A stretch of 5,724 nt of DNA from the IMG/VR virus record IMGVR_UViG_2563366838_000009; one strand, 5' to 3'. Positions 177 to 5,724 of this stretch are shown piece by piece (within the stretch, counting starts at the first letter, position 1; each line of letters opens with the position of its first letter). Origin of the DNA: a virus (lineage: Duplodnaviria; Heunggongvirae; Uroviricota; Caudoviricetes). The notes beneath the pieces were generated by a model. The model saw nothing but the letters and a program-made list of their open reading frames with translations. It was not told the DNA's origin and did no database searches. Position numbers and translations under genes: made by a program.

Positions 177-1306
177 CACAGCCGGTGTTTATGGATCTCG
201 CCAAAAAAGGTGTGGTAGCAGATTTGATTGGCGCAGGCGCAATCATCAGAACCGCGTTCTGCGGCCCATGCTTTGGCGCAGGCGCAATCATCAGAACCGC
301 GTTCTGCGGCCCATGCTTTGGCGCGGGCGATACGCCAATCAACAACGGTTTGAGTATTCGCCACACCACGCGTAACTTCCCGAACCGCGAAGGCTCTAAG
401 CCAGCTAATGGGCAGATGTCAGCGGTGGCGTTGATGGACGCTCGTTCTATCGCTGCGACTGCGGCAAACGGTGGCTATTTAACCTCTGCCAGCGAACTTG
501 ATTGCTGGGACAACGTGCCGGAGTACGCCTTCGATGTAACGCCGTATAAAAACCGTGTTTATCAGGGCTTTGTGAAAGGGGCAACTCAGCAACCGCTGAT
601 TTACGGGCCGAACATTAAAGACTGGCCGGAATTGGGTGCGCTGACTGACAATATCGTCCTGAAAGTGTGCTCGAAGATCCTCGACGAAGTGACCACCACC
701 GACGAACTGATTCCTTCCGGTGAAACCTCTTCTTATCGTTCAAATCCGATTGGTCTGGCGGAGTTTACCCTGTCTCGCCGCGATCCCGGTTATGTTAGCA
801 GAAGTAAAGCGACTGCTGAGCTGGAAAATCAGCGTCTGGCGGGGAATGTCAGCGAGCTGACAGAGGTGTTTGCGCGCATTAAGCAGATTGCTGGTCAGGA
901 GCATATTGATCCGCTGCAAACTGAAATTGGCAGCATGGTCTATGCGGTGAAACCAGGCGATGGTTCTGCGCGTGAACAGGCGGCGAGCTGCCAGCGTGTG
1001 ATTGGCGGTCTGGCGAATATTGCCGAGGAGTACGCGACTAAACGCTATCGTTCTAACGTCATCAACTGGGGGATGTTACCGCTGCAAATGGCGGAAGTAC
1101 CAACCTTTGAAGTGGGGGATTACATTTACATCCCTGGCATTAAAGCGGCGCTGGATAATCCGGGTACGACGTTTAAAGGTTATGTGATCCATGAAGATGC
1201 GCCGGTAACGGAAATTACGCTCTATATGGAAAGTCTGACTGCTGAAGAGCGCGAGATTATCAAGGCGGGTAGTTTGATTAACTTCAATAAAAACCGTCAG
1301 ATGTAA
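177..1306 (+). pseudogene. ybhJ: ybhJ (aconitase-family putative hydratase), 3' portion; gene interrupted upstream by the IS insertion and carrying an in-frame 45-bp tandem duplication
   Basis: The reading frame is open from 122 to the TAA at 1304-1306. Translation contains aconitase-family signatures ([10 protein letters not shown] Fe-S ligand motif, then [14 protein letters not shown] corresponding to the aconitase SYNRNFxGR region). Position next to ybhC and att-lambda matches the E. coli gal-bio region. The GTG at 185 used by the ORF track is not a real start; the frame simply continues from the IS junction. Confidence 0.75.
231..320 (+). repeat. Perfect 45-bp direct tandem duplication (231-275 = 276-320) inside ybhJ, in frame, duplicating codons for [15 protein letters not shown]
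   Basis: Both copies read GCGCAGGCGCAATCATCAGAACCGCGTTCTGCGGCCCATGCTTTG with 45/45 identity; the repeat is flanked by the near-identical microhomology GGCGCAGGCG / GGCGCGGGCG. Confidence 0.95.
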
Positions 1307-1539: not shown

Positions 1540-2823
1540 TTACTTCTTCGCCTCTGCAACCACTTTACTACCCACGCCGCGGTTATTGTATTCCCACATG
1601 CGGTTGTAGTTAGTGTCATTCAGATTGCGCTGTATTTCGTCGTTATCATCTACGCTGCCGGTATTACCCGCAAACGGACGATTAGAGATCACCGCATCGG
1701 CCCACGGTTTAGCCGTGTTAAAACCTTCGTTGATGGCGCTATCACGGATCACCACCTGACCGTTGGTATTGGCATCAACATCCAGCGAGCGGCCCAGTTG
1801 CGCCACACCATCACCGAAAGCATTGAAACGGCTGTTTACGGCGAGGAAACCGTAGTAAATGTTGGACAGCGTAGCCGGTGCAAACACATACGCTTCTTGC
1901 TGAGTACGTGAGTTCACCACGCGGAATTCGGTGTTATCGAACACCACTGCGCCGCGACCAGAAACGATATCCACATCCCCTTCAATGTAGCTGTTGGTCA
2001 CCAGCGTACGCGGCTGACGATTCGTTTCCAGACGGTTCTGCACACCGCTGTTGGTGACAAAGAAGGTGTTCTGACGACCGAGAATGTTAACGTTGTTAAT
2101 CTGTACCTGGTCACCATCAGTACGCAGTGCCACCGCCGGATGGTTACCTGCATCTACGCTATCGCCCAGCGTGTTTTCGATGGTCAGATTTTGCAGTTGC
2201 AGGCCATTGTTTTGTGACCAGAAGACCGCAGAGCAGAGAACACCGATACTGTCGCTGCGTTTGCTCTGGCAGCTATCGTACATATACCACGCTGGTTTAC
2301 CTGGCATATATTTGCCGCGCGGGTTGACGTCGTGACGCCAGTCGGCAGGGCTCATGCCACCATCAAGGGAAAGCCCAATCTTCACATCAATCGGTTTTTC
2401 ACCTGTACCGTACAGAGTAATTCCACCCGGAGCGGCAGGGACATATACCGTTCCCTGATACTCACCAGGCATCACGGCAATATACTGGCGCTTGTTGGTA
2501 CGCTTGATAATTGCCGCATCTACCGCCGCCTGAATCGTGGTATGCGTTACACCTTGAGTGCCCGCCGGGCCGACAACAAAGTCAGGTTGCGCAGGCAGGG
2601 TAATCGGGGAAGGATTCCACGCTGCAGCACCTGGTGTCAGGGATGCAAAATAGTGTTGAGCATCGAAATTCTGCGCTTCTTTTGCCGACAGAATCGGGCG
2701 AGAAGAGGTACCAGGCGCGGTTTGATCAGAAGGACGTTGATCGGGCGGGGTTGAGCTACAGGCGGTCAGCGTCACGCCAAAAGCCAATGCCAGCGCCAGA
2801 CGGGAAACTGAAAATGTGTTCAC
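1540..2823 (-). CDS. ybhC: YbhC, outer-membrane lipoprotein of the pectinesterase fold (putative acyl-CoA thioesterase), 427 aa, GTG start
   Basis: 427-aa ORF with N-terminal lipoprotein signal peptide and lipobox (MNTFSVSRLALALAFGVTLTAC, Cys as first mature residue); GGAG Shine-Dalgarno about 6 nt upstream of the GTG; length and position immediately next to att-lambda match E. coli ybhC. Confidence 0.9.
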   Translation of the reverse strand: MNTFSVSRLALALAFGVTLTACSSTPPDQRPSDQTAPGTSSRPILSAKEAQNFDAQHYFASLTPGAAAWNPSPITLPAQPDFVVGPAGTQGVTHTTIQAAVDAAIIKRTNKRQYIAVMPGEYQGTVYVPAAPGGITLYGTGEKPIDVKIGLSLDGGMSPADWRHDVNPRGKYMPGKPAWYMYDSCQSKRSDSIGVLCSAVFWSQNNGLQLQNLTIENTLGDSVDAGNHPAVALRTDGDQVQINNVNILGRQNTFFVTNSGVQNRLETNRQPRTLVTNSYIEGDVDIVSGRGAVVFDNTEFRVVNSRTQQEAYVFAPATLSNIYYGFLAVNSRFNAFGDGVAQLGRSLDVDANTNGQVVIRDSAINEGFNTAKPWADAVISNRPFAGNTGSVDDNDEIQRNLNDTNYNRMWEYNNRGVGSKVVAEAKK

Positions 2824-2862: not shown

Positions 2863-2961
2863 GAAGCCTGCTTTTTTATACTAAGTTGGCATTATAAAAA
2901 AGCATTGCTTATCAATTTGTTGCAACGAACAGGTCACTATCAGTCAAAATAAAATCATTAT
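2863..2961. other. attL: attL (B-O-P') junction of a lambda-type prophage; core GCTTTTTTATACTAA at 2870-2884
   Basis: Host B arm (...TTGAAGCCTG) joined to the 15-bp lambda core and then the phage P' arm (GTTGGCATTATAAAAAAGCATTGCTTATCAATTTGTTGCAACGAACAGGTCACTATCAGTCAAAATAAAATCATTATTTGATTTC), followed directly by the 3' end of int; this matches the lambda attP P' arm as I remember it. Confidence 0.9.
2909..2961. promoter_or_regulatory. P' arm protein-binding sites: IHF H' site (ATCAATTTGTTG, 2911-2922) and Int arm-type sites P'1 (2930-2940), P'2 (2941-2950), P'3 (2951-2961)
   Basis: IHF consensus WATCAANNNNTTR is matched at 2911-2922; three tandem arm-type repeats CAGGTCACTAT / CAGTCAAAAT / AAAATCATTAT match the Int arm-site consensus (C/A)AGTCACTAT; P'3 overlaps the int stop codon. 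Confidence 0.75.
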
Positions 2962-4028
2962 TTGATTTCAATTTTGTCCCACTCCCTGCCTCTGTCATCA
3001 CGATACTGTGATGCCATGGTGTCCGACTTATGCCCGAGAAGATGTTGAGCAAACTTATCGCTTATCTGCTTCTCATAGAGTCTTGCAGACAAACTGCGCA
3101 ACTCGTGAAAGGTAGGCGGATCCCCTTCGAAGGAAAGACCTGATGCTTTTCGTGCGCGCATAAAATACCTTGATACTGTGCCGGATGAAAGCGGTTCGCG
3201 ACGAGTAGATGCAATTATGGTTTCTCCGCCAAGAATCTCTTTGCATTTATCAAGTGTTTCCTTCATTGATATTCCGAGAGCATCAACATGCAATGCTGTT
3301 GGGATGGCAATTTTTACGCCTGTTTTGCTTTGCTCGACATAAAGATATCCATCTACGATATCAGACCACTTCATTTCGCATAAATCACCAACTCGTTGCC
3401 CGGTAACAACAGCCAGTTCCATTGCAAGTCTGAGCCAACATGGTGATGATTCTGCTGCTTGATAAATTTTCAGGTATTCGTCAGCCGTAAGTCTTGATCT
3501 CCTTACCTCTGATTTTGCTGCGCGAGTGGCAGCGACAGGGTTTGTTGTTATATGGCCTTCAGCTATTGCCTCTCGGAATGCATCGCTCAGTGTTGATCTG
3601 ATTAACTTGGCTGACGCCGCCTTGCCCTCGTCTATGTATCCATTGAGCATTGCCGCAATTTCTTTTGTGGTGATGTCTTCAAGTGGAGCATCAGGCAGAC
3701 CCCTCCTTATTGCTTTAATTTTGCTCATGTAATTTATGAGTGTCTTCTGCTTGATTCCTCTGCTGGCCAGGATTTTTTCGTAGCGATCAAGCCATGAATG
3801 TAACGTAACGGAATTATCACTGTTGATTCTCGCTGTCAGAGGCTTGTGTTTGTGTCCTGAAAATAACTCAATGTTGGCCTGTATAGCTTCAGTGATTGCG
3901 ATTCGCCTGTCTCGGCCTAATCCAAACTCTTTACCCGTCCTTGGGTCCCTGTAGCAGTAATATCCATTGTTTCTTATATAAAGGTTAGGGGGTAAATCCC
4001 GGCGCTCATGACTTCGCCTTCTTCCCAT
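2958..4028 (-). CDS. int: Lambda-type integrase Int (tyrosine recombinase), 356 aa
   Basis: 356-aa ORF beginning MGRRRSHERRDLPPNLYIRNNGYYCYRDPRTGKEFGLGRD (arm-binding N-domain) with the catalytic tyrosine-recombinase residues in HELRSL, HLLGH and the Tyr in MASQYRDD. Stop codon 81 bp from the core centre, and a GGATCC (BamHI) site at 3118-3123, both as in lambda int. Confidence 0.95.
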   Translation of the reverse strand: MGRRRSHERRDLPPNLYIRNNGYYCYRDPRTGKEFGLGRDRRIAITEAIQANIELFSGHKHKPLTARINSDNSVTLHSWLDRYEKILASRGIKQKTLINYMSKIKAIRRGLPDAPLEDITTKEIAAMLNGYIDEGKAASAKLIRSTLSDAFREAIAEGHITTNPVAATRAAKSEVRRSRLTADEYLKIYQAAESSPCWLRLAMELAVVTGQRVGDLCEMKWSDIVDGYLYVEQSKTGVKIAIPTALHVDALGISMKETLDKCKEILGGETIIASTRREPLSSGTVSRYFMRARKASGLSFEGDPPTFHELRSLSARLYEKQISDKFAQHLLGHKSDTMASQYRDDRGREWDKIEIK

Positions 4029-4224
4029 TTCTGATCCTCTTCAAAAGGCTACCTGTTACTGGTCGATTTAAGTCAACCTTTACCGCTGATTCGTGGAACA
4101 GATATTCTCTTCCATCCTTAACCGGAGGAGGGAATATCCTGCATTCGCGCACCCATCGACGAATTGTTTCAAGGCTTCTTGGGCGTCGCTGGCGAGCGTT
4201 CCACTCCTGAAGTGTCAAGTACAT
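4006..4224 (-). CDS. xis: Excisionase Xis, 72 aa, 3' end overlapping the int start by 23 bp
   Basis: 72-aa ORF MYLTLQEWNARQRRPRSLETIRRWVRECRIFPPPVKDGREYLFHESAVKVDLNRPVTGSLLKRIRNGKKAKS, matching lambda Xis as I remember it; the int-xis overlap is the lambda arrangement. Confidence 0.9.
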   Translation of the reverse strand: MYLTLQEWNARQRRPRSLETIRRWVRECRIFPPPVKDGREYLFHESAVKVDLNRPVTGSLLKRIRNGKKAKS

Positions 4225-4250
4225 CGCAAAGTCTCCGCAATTACACGCAA
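4215..4250 (-). promoter_or_regulatory. pI promoter region with cII-binding motif TTGC-N6-TTGC (minus strand, 4250-4237) overlapping the xis start
   Basis: Plus strand 4237-4250 reads GCAATTACACGCAA, i.e. TTGCGTGTAATTGC on the minus strand, the direct-repeat tetramer motif recognised by lambda CII at -35. It lies 13-26 bp upstream of the xis ATG, so initiation would fall at or just inside xis, as described for pI. Confidence 0.7.
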
Positions 4251-4251
4251 G

Positions 4252-4271
4252 AAAAAACCGCCATCAGGCGG
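4252..4271 (-). terminator. Rho-independent terminator on the minus strand (GC stem CCGCC/GGCGG, loop ATCA, then T6)
   Basis: Plus strand AAAAAACCGCCATCAGGCGG: on the minus strand the hairpin (4258-4271) is followed by TTTTTT (4252-4257). The stop codon of the upstream 55-aa ORF (4264-4266) lies in the loop. Confidence 0.7.
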
Positions 4272-4431
4272 CTTGGTGTTCTTTCAGTTCTTCAATTCGA
4301 ATATTGGTTACGTCTGCATGTGCTATCTGCGCCCACAGCATCCAGTGGTTATAGCAGTCGCTGATGTTCTCGGCTTCGATAACTCTGTTGAATGGTTCTC
4401 CATTCCATTCACCTGTAACTCGGAAGTGCAT
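4264..4431 (-). CDS. Small hypothetical protein, 55 aa (MHFRVTGEWNGEPFNRVIEAENISDCYNHWMLWAQIAHADVTNIRIEELKEHQAA)
   Basis: ATG-initiated ORF below the 60-aa cutoff of the supplied track, found by manual translation. It fits exactly between the tandem terminators (4441-4500) and the terminator at 4252-4271, and has a protein-like composition. The ribosome-binding site is weak. I recall an unnamed ORF of about this size at this position in lambda but cannot verify that here. Confidence 0.45.
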   Translation of the reverse strand: MHFRVTGEWNGEPFNRVIEAENISDCYNHWMLWAQIAHADVTNIRIEELKEHQAA

Positions 4432-4440
4432 TTATCATCG

Positions 4441-4469
4441 CCATAAAACAAAACTCGCCGTAGCGAGTT
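4441..4469 (-). terminator. Intrinsic terminator on the minus strand (stem AACTCGC/GCGAGTT, loop CGTA, followed by TTGTTTTAT)
   Basis: 7-bp perfect stem at 4452-4458 / 4463-4469 with a U-rich tract on the minus strand from 4441-4451. Confidence 0.6.
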
Positions 4470-4500
4470 CAGATAAAAGAAAACCCGCACTCGGCGGGTT
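4470..4500 (-). terminator. Second intrinsic terminator in tandem on the minus strand (stem AACCCGC/GCGGGTT, 5-nt loop, followed by TTTCTTTTAT)
   Basis: 7-bp perfect stem at 4482-4488 / 4494-4500 with a U-rich tract on the minus strand from 4470-4481, immediately downstream of the stop at 4521-4523. Confidence 0.6.
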
Positions 4501-4520
4501 CGCATTCGTTCAAATTGCGT

Positions 4521-4802
4521 TTACTTCTTGGCGTTCTGTTCATCCATATCGATATACCATGGGTTGCTTCCCTTGGGCATGTTTAACGACTGCTCGCGAT
4601 AGTATCTGATGCGCTCCATGAAATACTCGCGTGAGTGCTCAGGTTGCTCTCATGATACCTGCTCAGTGATAACAGGTATGTTAAGGCGCTCTCTGTACTC
4701 CATGCCTGATGCTGCAAGGTCAACGTTTACCTTGTTCTGTTTTTCTTTCGATTTCTCGGCGATGTTATGCCTGACATTGTCAACCCGCCTCCTTCTGAAC
4801 AT
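4521..4802 (-). pseudogene. ea8.5-position reading frame (282 bp, ATG at 4802, TAA at 4521-4523) interrupted by an in-frame TGA at 4650-4652
   Basis: Manual translation gives MFRRRRVDNVRHNIAEKSKEKQNKVNVDLAASGMEYRERLNIPVITEQVS-stop-EQPEHSREYFMERIRYYREQSLNMPKGSNPWYIDMDEQNAKK. The 282-bp span and its position relative to xis match my recollection of the lambda ea8.5 annotation. The TGA breaks it into 50-aa and 42-codon segments. Whether this frame is truly expressed in any phage is uncertain: weak RBS, and three consecutive rare Arg codons AGA AGG AGG. Confidence 0.4.
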
Positions 4803-5064
4803 AACGGTTATAAATCAGTCCCTGAGGGCCATAAGGAAGCGGGATGTGCAACTCCTCTGGTTCAGAAACTATCCATTCCCCGGCCATCTCCGCTGGAGAG
4901 GTAATGATAAGTTGTTTGCTAATAAAAGGACCACTCCTCTCAACAACAAGCTTACCATCTTCATTAATAAAAGCTTGGATGTCAGGTGTGCTTCCACACT
5001 TGGTGATGCAGCGTTTGAACATTTTGTGTCCCCCCATTTTATGGACGGGGTAATTATAACACAT
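4780..5064 (-). CDS. Hypothetical small Cys/His-containing protein, 94 aa from the first ATG; more likely 80 aa starting at ATG 5022, which has a GGGGGA Shine-Dalgarno
   Basis: ORF with protein-like composition; the internal ATG at 5020-5022 is preceded by GGGGGACACAAA (SD with 6-nt spacer). N-terminal region has H-x4-H-x5-C-x3-C (HKMGGHKMFKRCITKC), a possible small metal-binding site. The overlapping plus-strand 152-aa ORF translates to low-complexity sequence and is rejected. Confidence 0.5.
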   Translation of the reverse strand: MCYNYPVHKMGGHKMFKRCITKCGSTPDIQAFINEDGKLVVERSGPFISKQLIITSPAEMAGEWIVSEPEELHIPLPYGPQGLIYNRYVQKEAG

Positions 5065-5148
5065 TGAAATATAGTAATATTTGACGTAGATTTCTTTTGA
5101 TCTATAAGCGATTTTTTAATGCTTTTAAGTTATAAATACTTGTTTTCA

Positions 5149-5724
5149 TCACCCATCTTGCTGCGGTGCTACTATTGAAAAGTACTCACACCCTTTAGCC
5201 CAAATAGTTTTGATAGTTGTCCAACTGACTGGAACCTTGATTTCGATTCTTCCGCTGCCGTCACAAGTTTCGCAATCATCATCACCAAAGCATTCCGGGC
5301 AGCTTATAAACGTAGTTTCTGAAAATTCACCGGATAGCACACCCTTAGCGCCGTTCTCAGCGGTTAGTTTCTTCGGCACTATAACCCAACCATCCGGAGT
5401 TACCGGAGAATTGCCATTTATATCGAAGTTTGGCTCTGCGTCCTGAACCAGGAGGATGTAACCATTCTTGGCAGTATCAAGTTCTAACGCCTCGGTGACG
5501 GTACCGAAATAGCGATTACCTAAATCCGCATCACAAGTGCTTACATCAATGGAAACCTCCATGCCTTCGATTAATTCTGGCAAGTTGTAAGTTTGGCTTA
5601 CAGGTTCTGCTCCCAGTGATGCCAGTGCAATTCGTGCCAGTTCCATTTGTTCGCCACGAGTAAGCCCGTTTTCAAGCGGATTTTTAATGAACAATTCAAT
5701 ACGTTCTTTGGTAATAGTGGTCAT
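5149..5724 (-). CDS. Hypothetical prophage early-left protein, at least 191 aa, with a C-terminal CPECFGDDDCETCDGSG cysteine cluster (CxxC-x5-CxxCxGxG); 5' end may lie beyond the window
   Basis: Long minus-strand ORF ending at TGA 5149-5151. An ATG sits exactly at the window edge (5722-5724), so the true start cannot be confirmed. The second half-motif CETCDGSG matches the DnaJ-type CxxCxGxG zinc-finger signature. It occupies the position where lambda carries ea22, but length and frame do not match my recollection of lambda ea22. Confidence 0.65.
   Translation of the reverse strand: MTTITKERIELFIKNPLENGLTRGEQMELARIALASLGAEPVSQTYNLPELIEGMEVSIDVSTCDADLGNRYFGTVTEALELDTAKNGYILLVQDAEPNFDINGNSPVTPDGWVIVPKKLTAENGAKGVLSGEFSETTFISCPECFGDDDCETCDGSGRIEIKVPVSWTTIKTIWAKGCEYFSIVAPQQDG

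Follow-up and report, generated by a model that had tools for sequence, protein, structure and literature searches.

The stretch of DNA analysed in this work (referred to below as the window) comprises 5,724 nucleotides (nt) of the IMG/VR virus record IMGVR_UViG_2563366838_000009, and our interest lies in its interval 4433-5724, which adjoins the integrase (int) and excisionase (xis) genes of a lambda-family prophage and carries three genes of a different kind, viz. an interrupted homologue of the theta subunit of DNA polymerase III and of the Hot protein of phage P1, a gene for a protein of 80 amino acids (aa), and a gene for a mosaic protein of 191 aa. Judged by its sequence, the window as a whole is E. 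coli chromosome followed by the left end (attL) of a prophage of the lambda family, which is inserted at the attachment site of lambda, and the features recognised in it are listed in Table 1. At least 80% of the window is present in 33 complete E. coli genomes, several of which match it at 99.9-100% identity. In the prophage of MS 196-1, which is 100% identical, it is followed to the right by more accessory genes and then by lambda-like orf63, orf60a, exo, bet, gam and kil, after which come the immunity region and the O and P genes.

Table 1. Features of the 5,724-nt window, with positions counted from its first letter (a dot marks features that have no strand)
Feature	Position	Strand	Remarks
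IS3-family (IS1203/IS629-like) insertion sequence (IS) element, 3' end	1 to ~176		Abuts ybhJ sequence
ybhJ, 3' part	185-1306	+	E. coli chromosomal
ybhC	1540-2823	-	E. coli chromosomal; adjoins attL
att core GCTTTTTTATACTAA, 15 bp	2870-2884	.	Left prophage end, attL; lambda alignment begins here at 27724
Lambda-type integrase, 356 aa	2958-4028	-	RefSeq: tyrosine recombinase
Excisionase xis	4006-4224	-	23-nt overlap with int
55-aa open reading frame (ORF), equivalent of lambda lambdap35 (phrog_676)	4264-4431	-	Last lambda-type gene
Linker, 58 bp	4429-4486	.	Intergenic; common to lambda and to non-lambda cargo-bearing prophages
Intrinsic-terminator-like hairpin and T-run	4451-4470	-	Within linker
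Second intrinsic-terminator-like hairpin and T-run	4481-4501	-	Directly after theta-like gene; first non-lambda sequence
Pseudogene, Hot/theta (DNA polymerase III theta subunit) homologue, 93 codons, 282 nt	4521-4802	-	In-frame TGA at codon 51 (4650-4652)
80-aa protein WP_000476264.1, phrog_9613 (unknown function)	4780-5022	-	94-aa reading would extend to 5064
Candidate extended -10 element TGTTATAAT	5053-5061	-	Upstream of 80-aa gene; read by eye
191-aa mosaic protein, complete	5149-5724	-	Window ends with its ATG
191-aa gene, N-terminal module	~5613-5724		
191-aa gene, central module	~5416-5617		
191-aa gene, C-terminal module	5149-5415		CxxC...CxxCxGxG

For the comparison with lambda, the DNA was searched by megablast against 50,697 phage records and by blastn with a word size of 7 against positions 27500-32500 of the lambda genome (NC_001416). 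The sole alignment from the latter search covers 1617 bp (window 2870-4486; lambda 27724-29340), with 98.5% identity and 24 mismatches. As this alignment starts at the att core and host DNA lies to the left of it, the site is identified as attL, and what follows is a lambda-type site-specific recombination module, in which the 15-bp core is present, int and xis stand in the lambda order, and the overlap between these two genes is kept. The BamHI site at 3118 corresponds, by the alignment offset, to lambda 27972; an earlier note on this DNA, made from its letters alone, had counted the BamHI site in int among the lambda-like features. From 4487 to the end of the window no similarity to lambda is detectable at the DNA level, even with a word size of 7 and with lambda 29341-32500 included in the comparison. 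The proposal of the earlier note that a lambda-like int-xis backbone gives way here to divergent cargo, in what is a variable accessory slot between xis and exo, thus holds on both points, since lambda identity stops at 4486 and a different accessory block occupies this slot; near-100% identity with lambda across 2870-5724, the outcome of a blastn comparison that the note had named as contrary to its proposal, did not occur. The note was also right in that a HindIII site (AAGCTT) is found at 4971 where lambda has none; a second one is located at 4948, and no such site occurs in lambda 27500-32500. The break which it had placed at about 4520-4800 does exist, but it lies slightly to the left, within 4438-4486.

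The placement of this break rests on prophages other than lambda. The same cargo is carried by prophages with unrelated integrases, located beside sbcB or beside dsdC/torI, and three loci (L005-L007) as well as many IMG/VR prophage loci match the window from 4429 rightward but do not match the 55-aa ORF. Since the homology with lambda extends to 4486 and that with the other backbones starts from 4429, the intervening stretch of 58 bp is common to both kinds of genomes. Among the parent-informative single nucleotide polymorphisms (SNPs) in this linker, position 4437 has the lambda base and positions 4455, 4479 and 4483 have the bases of L005-L007, so that the exchange, with its switch of parent between 4437 and 4455, falls within 4438-4454. 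Where lambdoid phages exchange modules by homologous recombination, the joint is expected to lie in a short conserved linker between genes, and it is most likely that the two parts were joined in this way inside the 58-bp linker. To the right of it, the sequence 4489-4556, comprising the second hairpin and the 3' end of the theta-like gene, shows 84% identity to a non-annotated sequence of the Salmonella prophages Gifsy-1 and Gifsy-2.

The gene that directly precedes the second hairpin is a homologue of Hot and theta. Its translation reads MFRRRRVDNVRHNIAEKSKEKQNKVNVDLAASGMEYRERLNIPVITEQVS, followed by the in-frame stop and then by EQPEH...NAKK, and when the stop is read as Arg this sequence matches Pfam PF06440 (DNA_pol3_theta) with 100.9 bits (E=3e-29; cut-off 34.6). 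The match is nearer to the P1 Hot structure 1SE7 (E=2.7e-29) than to the chromosomal theta of E. coli, HolE (E=5.7e-16), and with 91.4 bits the protein misses the cut-off of 97 for the chromosomal HolE subfamily NCBIfam NF008207. By these comparisons, the gene is a phage-type (Hot-like) theta homologue and should not be taken for holE itself. Intact relatives of 85 aa, with 70-79% identity, occur commonly in Citrobacter, Klebsiella, Salmonella and E. coli; in Klebsiella, HK639 and P1-like phages they bear the annotation theta. In comparison with Hot and HolE, the homologue in the window has an Arg-rich N-terminus that is longer by 8 residues (MFRRRRVD...) and is stopped at the Arg of the REQPE motif, a residue which is conserved in both Hot and HolE. 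The frame for the whole three-helix protein is thus interrupted at codon 51, and the product is truncated at residue 50 of 93. The earlier note had described the frame at the ea8.5 position as broken, and the TGA bears this out; however, the frame belongs to a theta/Hot homologue and not to ea8.5. Both the ORF and lambda ea8.5 (L003 1875-2156) are 282 nt long, and the ORF is offset by 1 nt from the equivalent position, but the two genes are unrelated and the match in length is coincidental.

The distribution of alleles indicates how this gene was lost. Codon 51 is CGA in four relatives (L039-L042), and the direction of the mutation was therefore from CGA to TGA. All nine RefSeq copies that were inspected have the TGA and are flagged 'internal stop', 27 of the 31 close IMG/VR copies have it as well, and the identical 71-mer surrounding it is found in 72 genomes. 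Of the four copies with CGA, one (L040) is frameshifted near codon 80, as is the database protein P0130, two others (L041 and L042) are frameshifted after about codon 46, and L039 alone is intact. The occurrence of three independent lesions in one small gene family speaks for true pseudogenisation rather than programmed recoding. The substitutions among the copies are also mostly of the non-synonymous kind (5, compared with 3 synonymous), and in comparison with the intact L039 allele the counts are about 7 to 0. The theta-like gene thus reads as a real pseudogene, inactivated by a CGA-to-TGA nonsense mutation and now decaying. That this phage gene has been inactivated repeatedly and independently in prophages of E. 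coli is a real, if minor, finding, and it suggests that the function is dispensable there or is selected against. The sole 'intact' and nearly identical homologue in the protein database is P0129 (ENA metagenome, 93 aa), which has Trp at the position of the TGA in the window; it could be regarded as a revertant, but we judge this less likely than an artefact of gene calling in which TGA was translated as Trp. A reciprocal state is seen in L039 (3001-3500 of IMG/VR UViG_2737471863_000004), where the theta-like gene is intact (CGA, 93 aa) and the 80-aa gene is stopped at codon 58.

The second cargo gene had been described as encoding a Cys/His protein of 80-94 aa. The 94-aa ORF is indeed present; however, all relatives begin at its Met15, which is preceded at a 6-nt spacing by the sequence GGGGGA (5029-5034), and on account of this start and ribosome-binding site the 80-aa form is the likely product. 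The Cys/His description also does not hold for the family, as the relatives of 45-66% identity share 17 invariant columns, only one of which is a Cys. A BLASTP comparison of the 94-aa ORF with lambda Ea8.5 (a homeodomain/zinc-finger hybrid) gave no alignment at E<=100. The family is small, with 8 clusters in a word-indexed search of 5.8 billion proteins and 11 in an exhaustive HMMER search of 1.84 billion representatives, and a scan of one genome per species (GTDB) revealed no relative. The protein is modelled by AlphaFold as a small beta-barrel of six strands, with a predicted local distance difference test score (pLDDT) of 85, and the folds that match it are of a generic kind (Z at most 6.1). 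Based on the 17 invariant columns and the confident model, the product looks like a real protein. A giant protein of 2194 aa (P0254) shows a weak match to it in five separate stretches (26% identity, E=6.6e-7), which hints that the small barrel may be similar to a unit that is repeated in a large protein of the surface or tail type. The 80-aa gene is preceded by an AT-rich spacer of 126 bp (28% GC), which contains the candidate extended -10 element. In a relative whose protein is 70% identical, this non-coding block is conserved to about the same degree as the coding sequence or to a higher one, and this relative is located at a different genome position, after replication genes. One may hypothesise from these sequences that the cassette has a promoter of its own.

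The third cargo gene was previously noted as an ORF of at least 191 aa. It is present and its length is exactly 191 aa, as shown by database proteins of the same length with 99% identity; in MS 196-1 the next gene ends 10 nt beyond its start. Many 191-aa proteins in the database are 95-99% identical to it, and the majority of them are named 'molecular chaperone DnaJ'. This name is due to the motif CPEC...CETCDGSG alone: a J domain is lacking, and there is one CxxC and one CxxCxGxG in place of the four CxxCxGxG repeats expected of a DnaJ/Hsp40 protein. Searches with Pfam, NCBIfam and J-domain models gave no match above threshold, and the sub-threshold matches are to Anti-TRAP and GRXCR C-terminal Cys motifs and to the DnaJ structure 1EXK (E=7.3). 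An identity as Ea22/Ead (PF13935) was likewise rejected, there being no Pfam hit and a best E value of 1.4 in BLASTP with lambda Ea22. The annotation of this ORF in RefSeq is inconsistent between genomes which are identical here (L001 17315-17452; L002 10932-11507): one genome has a 137-aa 'DnaJ' together with an 'incomplete' N-terminal fragment, and in another the fragment only is annotated and the remainder is not.

The mosaic nature of this gene is evident from where its similarities begin and end. Homology with other prophages stops at about 5415 and resumes at about 5613, and in the family alignment the N-terminal modules are variable, the central module is nearly invariant, and the C-terminal alternatives are either the zinc motif or DUF551. 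The 5' part of HK620 hkaE and the stretch 5386-5724 share 97.6% identity, and the central part of the protein encoded here (residues 26-114, or 77 residues by another count) shows 87% identity to HK629 gp33. The central module is common to Ea22-like, DUF551 and DUF550 proteins, and the relation to PF13935 proteins is limited to this module, as the domain itself lies elsewhere in those proteins. The same swapping of segments within a gene is seen in HK620 hkaE, HK629 gp33 and the P22-like EaA, Ea22-like and DUF551 proteins, but the protein described here differs from this family in that its C-terminus is the four-Cys CxxC...CxxCxGxG instead of DUF551 and in lacking a PF13935 (Ead_Ea22) hit.

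The segment 4487-5148, which contains the first two cargo genes, is distributed as a unit. It is present in 91 of 5,426 complete E. coli genomes, inclusive of IAI1 (84 of these copies are full-length), at no fewer than three integration sites, and IMG/VR contains 31 close loci and one relative of 70% identity. Among deposited phage genomes there is no relative of above 80% identity, and only the theta gene aligns, at 71-78%. The right neighbour of the module varies and is either a protein named DnaJ, a DUF550 or DUF551 protein, or a Rad52 fragment. A search of the cargo with the PADLOC models of defence systems gave no significant match, the best value being 0.015 over 25 residues of the Cys motif. 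The suggestion that the cargo may be uncharacterised can thus be accepted in part, as two of its genes are without an assigned function; however, one gene belongs to the well-studied theta/Hot family, and the whole segment can already be found, with annotation, in dozens of public E. coli genomes of RefSeq, IAI1 among them. Nothing suggests that it is a new kind of system.

The interpretation of these results which we hold with high confidence is that the interval represents a recombination joint in a lambda-family prophage, and that its accessory block is itself mosaic and includes a cassette with a dead theta/Hot gene. The left part, consisting of lambda-type int, xis and the 55-aa ORF, would have become joined to a non-lambda accessory block on the right by an exchange in the terminator-bearing linker (4438-4454). 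The first module of this block (4487-5148) is a portable cassette that travels among prophages with different integrases; it has two genes, the 80-aa gene and the theta/Hot-like gene, with the AT-rich region upstream of them and two terminators. The second module is the gene for the 191-aa protein, in which three exchangeable segments are put together. As in lambda, the three cargo genes are probably transcribed leftward from pL early after induction, and an extended -10 promoter belonging to the cassette possibly contributes. The original role of the theta/Hot homologue would have been, like that of P1 Hot, to bind the host epsilon and stabilise it (both theta and Hot stabilise this proofreading subunit; PMC2528190). 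At present, the 80-aa beta-barrel and the 191-aa zinc-motif genes are intact and the theta/Hot gene is inactivated. A joint of this kind is textbook lambdoid mosaicism, i.e. the normal build of such a phage, and it is no surprise.

The block also fits what is known of the corresponding part of lambda, viz. the b2-proximal early-left region between exo and xis (orf55, ea8.5, ea22 and orf61). The cargo has the same position and orientation, past xis and the 55-aa ORF, and lambda-type genes, from orf63 to kil, resume further to the right in the full prophage. However, the cargo is unlike ea8.5 and ea22 in both DNA and protein, and the theta/Hot pseudogene and the 80-aa and 191-aa genes are found in their place. 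The variability of this slot is well documented, inclusive of lambdoid and Shiga toxin (Stx) phages (PMC7093339, PMC8614690).

A number of observations weigh against the interpretation of a recombination joint with a mosaic block and a dead gene. The common 58-bp linker fits a homologous exchange without proving it, as it could also have been left over from a common ancestor. Most copies of the theta-like gene carry the nonsense allele, which has spread over at least three backbones; this is slightly unexpected for dead DNA, although it can be explained by hitch-hiking with the intact neighbour gene. For the 80-aa gene, the ratio of non-synonymous to synonymous substitution rates (dN/dS) is uninformative, as the 3-6 substitutions per comparison are too few to gauge selection. 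A two-hexamer promoter scan reported no site at TGTTATAAT, due to the lack of a -35 match, and the structure prediction for the 191-aa protein, with 17 close homologues, is of low confidence (pLDDT 34).

Of the other explanations, the one that fares best is that 4487-5148 is a moron, i.e. an independent unit of promoter, gene and terminator (PMC3594210), which is expressed from the repressed prophage and whose 80-aa protein aids the lysogen, e.g. by phage exclusion. The cassette moves as a unit between backbones and has two terminators downstream, and its AT-rich upstream region, with the candidate element and a good ribosome-binding site, is conserved in the relative at the other genome position. 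However, the promoter is unsupported by the scan, the protein lacks a match to known defence families, its generic fold matches are of no help in this regard, and the gene is in the orientation of the pL operon, so that read-through from pL is enough to explain its expression. In its flanking terminators and AT-rich region, its occurrence on several backbones and its joint in a short conserved intergenic sequence the cassette does resemble phage morons and other cases of linker exchange; it differs from them in that one of its two genes is dead and its independent transcription is putative. We regard this explanation as possible but doubtful. Rather improbable, in our view, is the more specific proposal that the 80-aa protein is the selected payload of the portable cassette, expressed in the lysogen from its own promoter and serving in a phage-host or phage-phage conflict, with the theta/Hot gene being repeatedly discarded.

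A further explanation is that the theta/Hot-like gene is still functional despite its TGA, either by readthrough, or as a 50-aa N-terminal peptide, or as two separate halves, and that the allele is common for this reason. The dominance of the TGA allele on at least three prophage backbones can be read in this manner, each half has its own PHROGs family (phrog_10131 and phrog_29833), the residues past the stop are still Hot-like, and no stop codon of E. coli is leakier than UGA. However, the sister alleles with CGA are independently frameshifted at two other places, which is the signature of an unselected gene; the conserved Arg is lost and the protein is cut short; the differences among copies are mostly non-synonymous; and the 'intact' P0129 with its Trp is most simply an artefact of gene calling. 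It is thus very unlikely that this gene retains its function. The explanation that the segment is plain phage lambda, the map of which the earlier note had wrong, has virtually no chance of being correct, since the similarity of int, xis, the 55-aa ORF and the att core is followed from 4487 by a complete lack of alignment, which refutes it, and there is in addition no protein similarity to Ea8.5 or Ea22 and two HindIII sites that are absent from the compared part of lambda.

Beyond annotation, the importance of these results for the recombination joint is small, and it lies in a clean case, resolved to the base, of a lambda-family prophage in which modules were exchanged at a short linker with a terminator. 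They also serve to correct three labels: the ORF at the 'ea8.5 position' represents an inactivated homologue of Hot/theta, the name 'DnaJ' is not appropriate for the 191-aa protein, and the small 'Cys/His' protein is an 80-aa predicted beta-barrel. Other ORFs in this part of the window are judged to be spurious, as they are without Pfam or PHROG matches and without RefSeq annotation; these are the plus-strand ORFs 4609-5067 (152 aa), 4364-4609 (81 aa) and 5210-5446 (78 aa), and the minus-strand ORF 4323-4505 (60 aa). An Rfam scan of 4433-5724 gave only a chance-level match to rsmX (E=0.19), and a search for tRNAs found none.

Some minor observations concern the lambda-type and chromosomal parts of the window. 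The mismatches to lambda are unevenly placed, with 3 in 2870-4049 (int) and 21 in 4050-4483 (xis, the 55-aa ORF and the linker), which suggests that a second and older boundary, of recombination or of divergence, may be located near the int/xis junction. At the left end, the exact junction between the IS element and ybhJ occurs in none of the 5,426 complete E. coli genomes. Further, ybhJ contains an in-frame tandem duplication of 45 bp at 228-329 (2.3 copies, 98% match), as a result of which a peptide of 15 residues is repeated, and the extra copy is apparently absent elsewhere, as the alignments of other genomes begin at 273, or else begin at 174 and contain a gap of 44-45 bp. Lastly, the intergenic region between ybhJ and ybhC (1326-1537) contains repeats of the repetitive extragenic palindromic (REP) type that match Rfam naRNA4, and one of these copies, with 60.7 bits, is over the gathering score.

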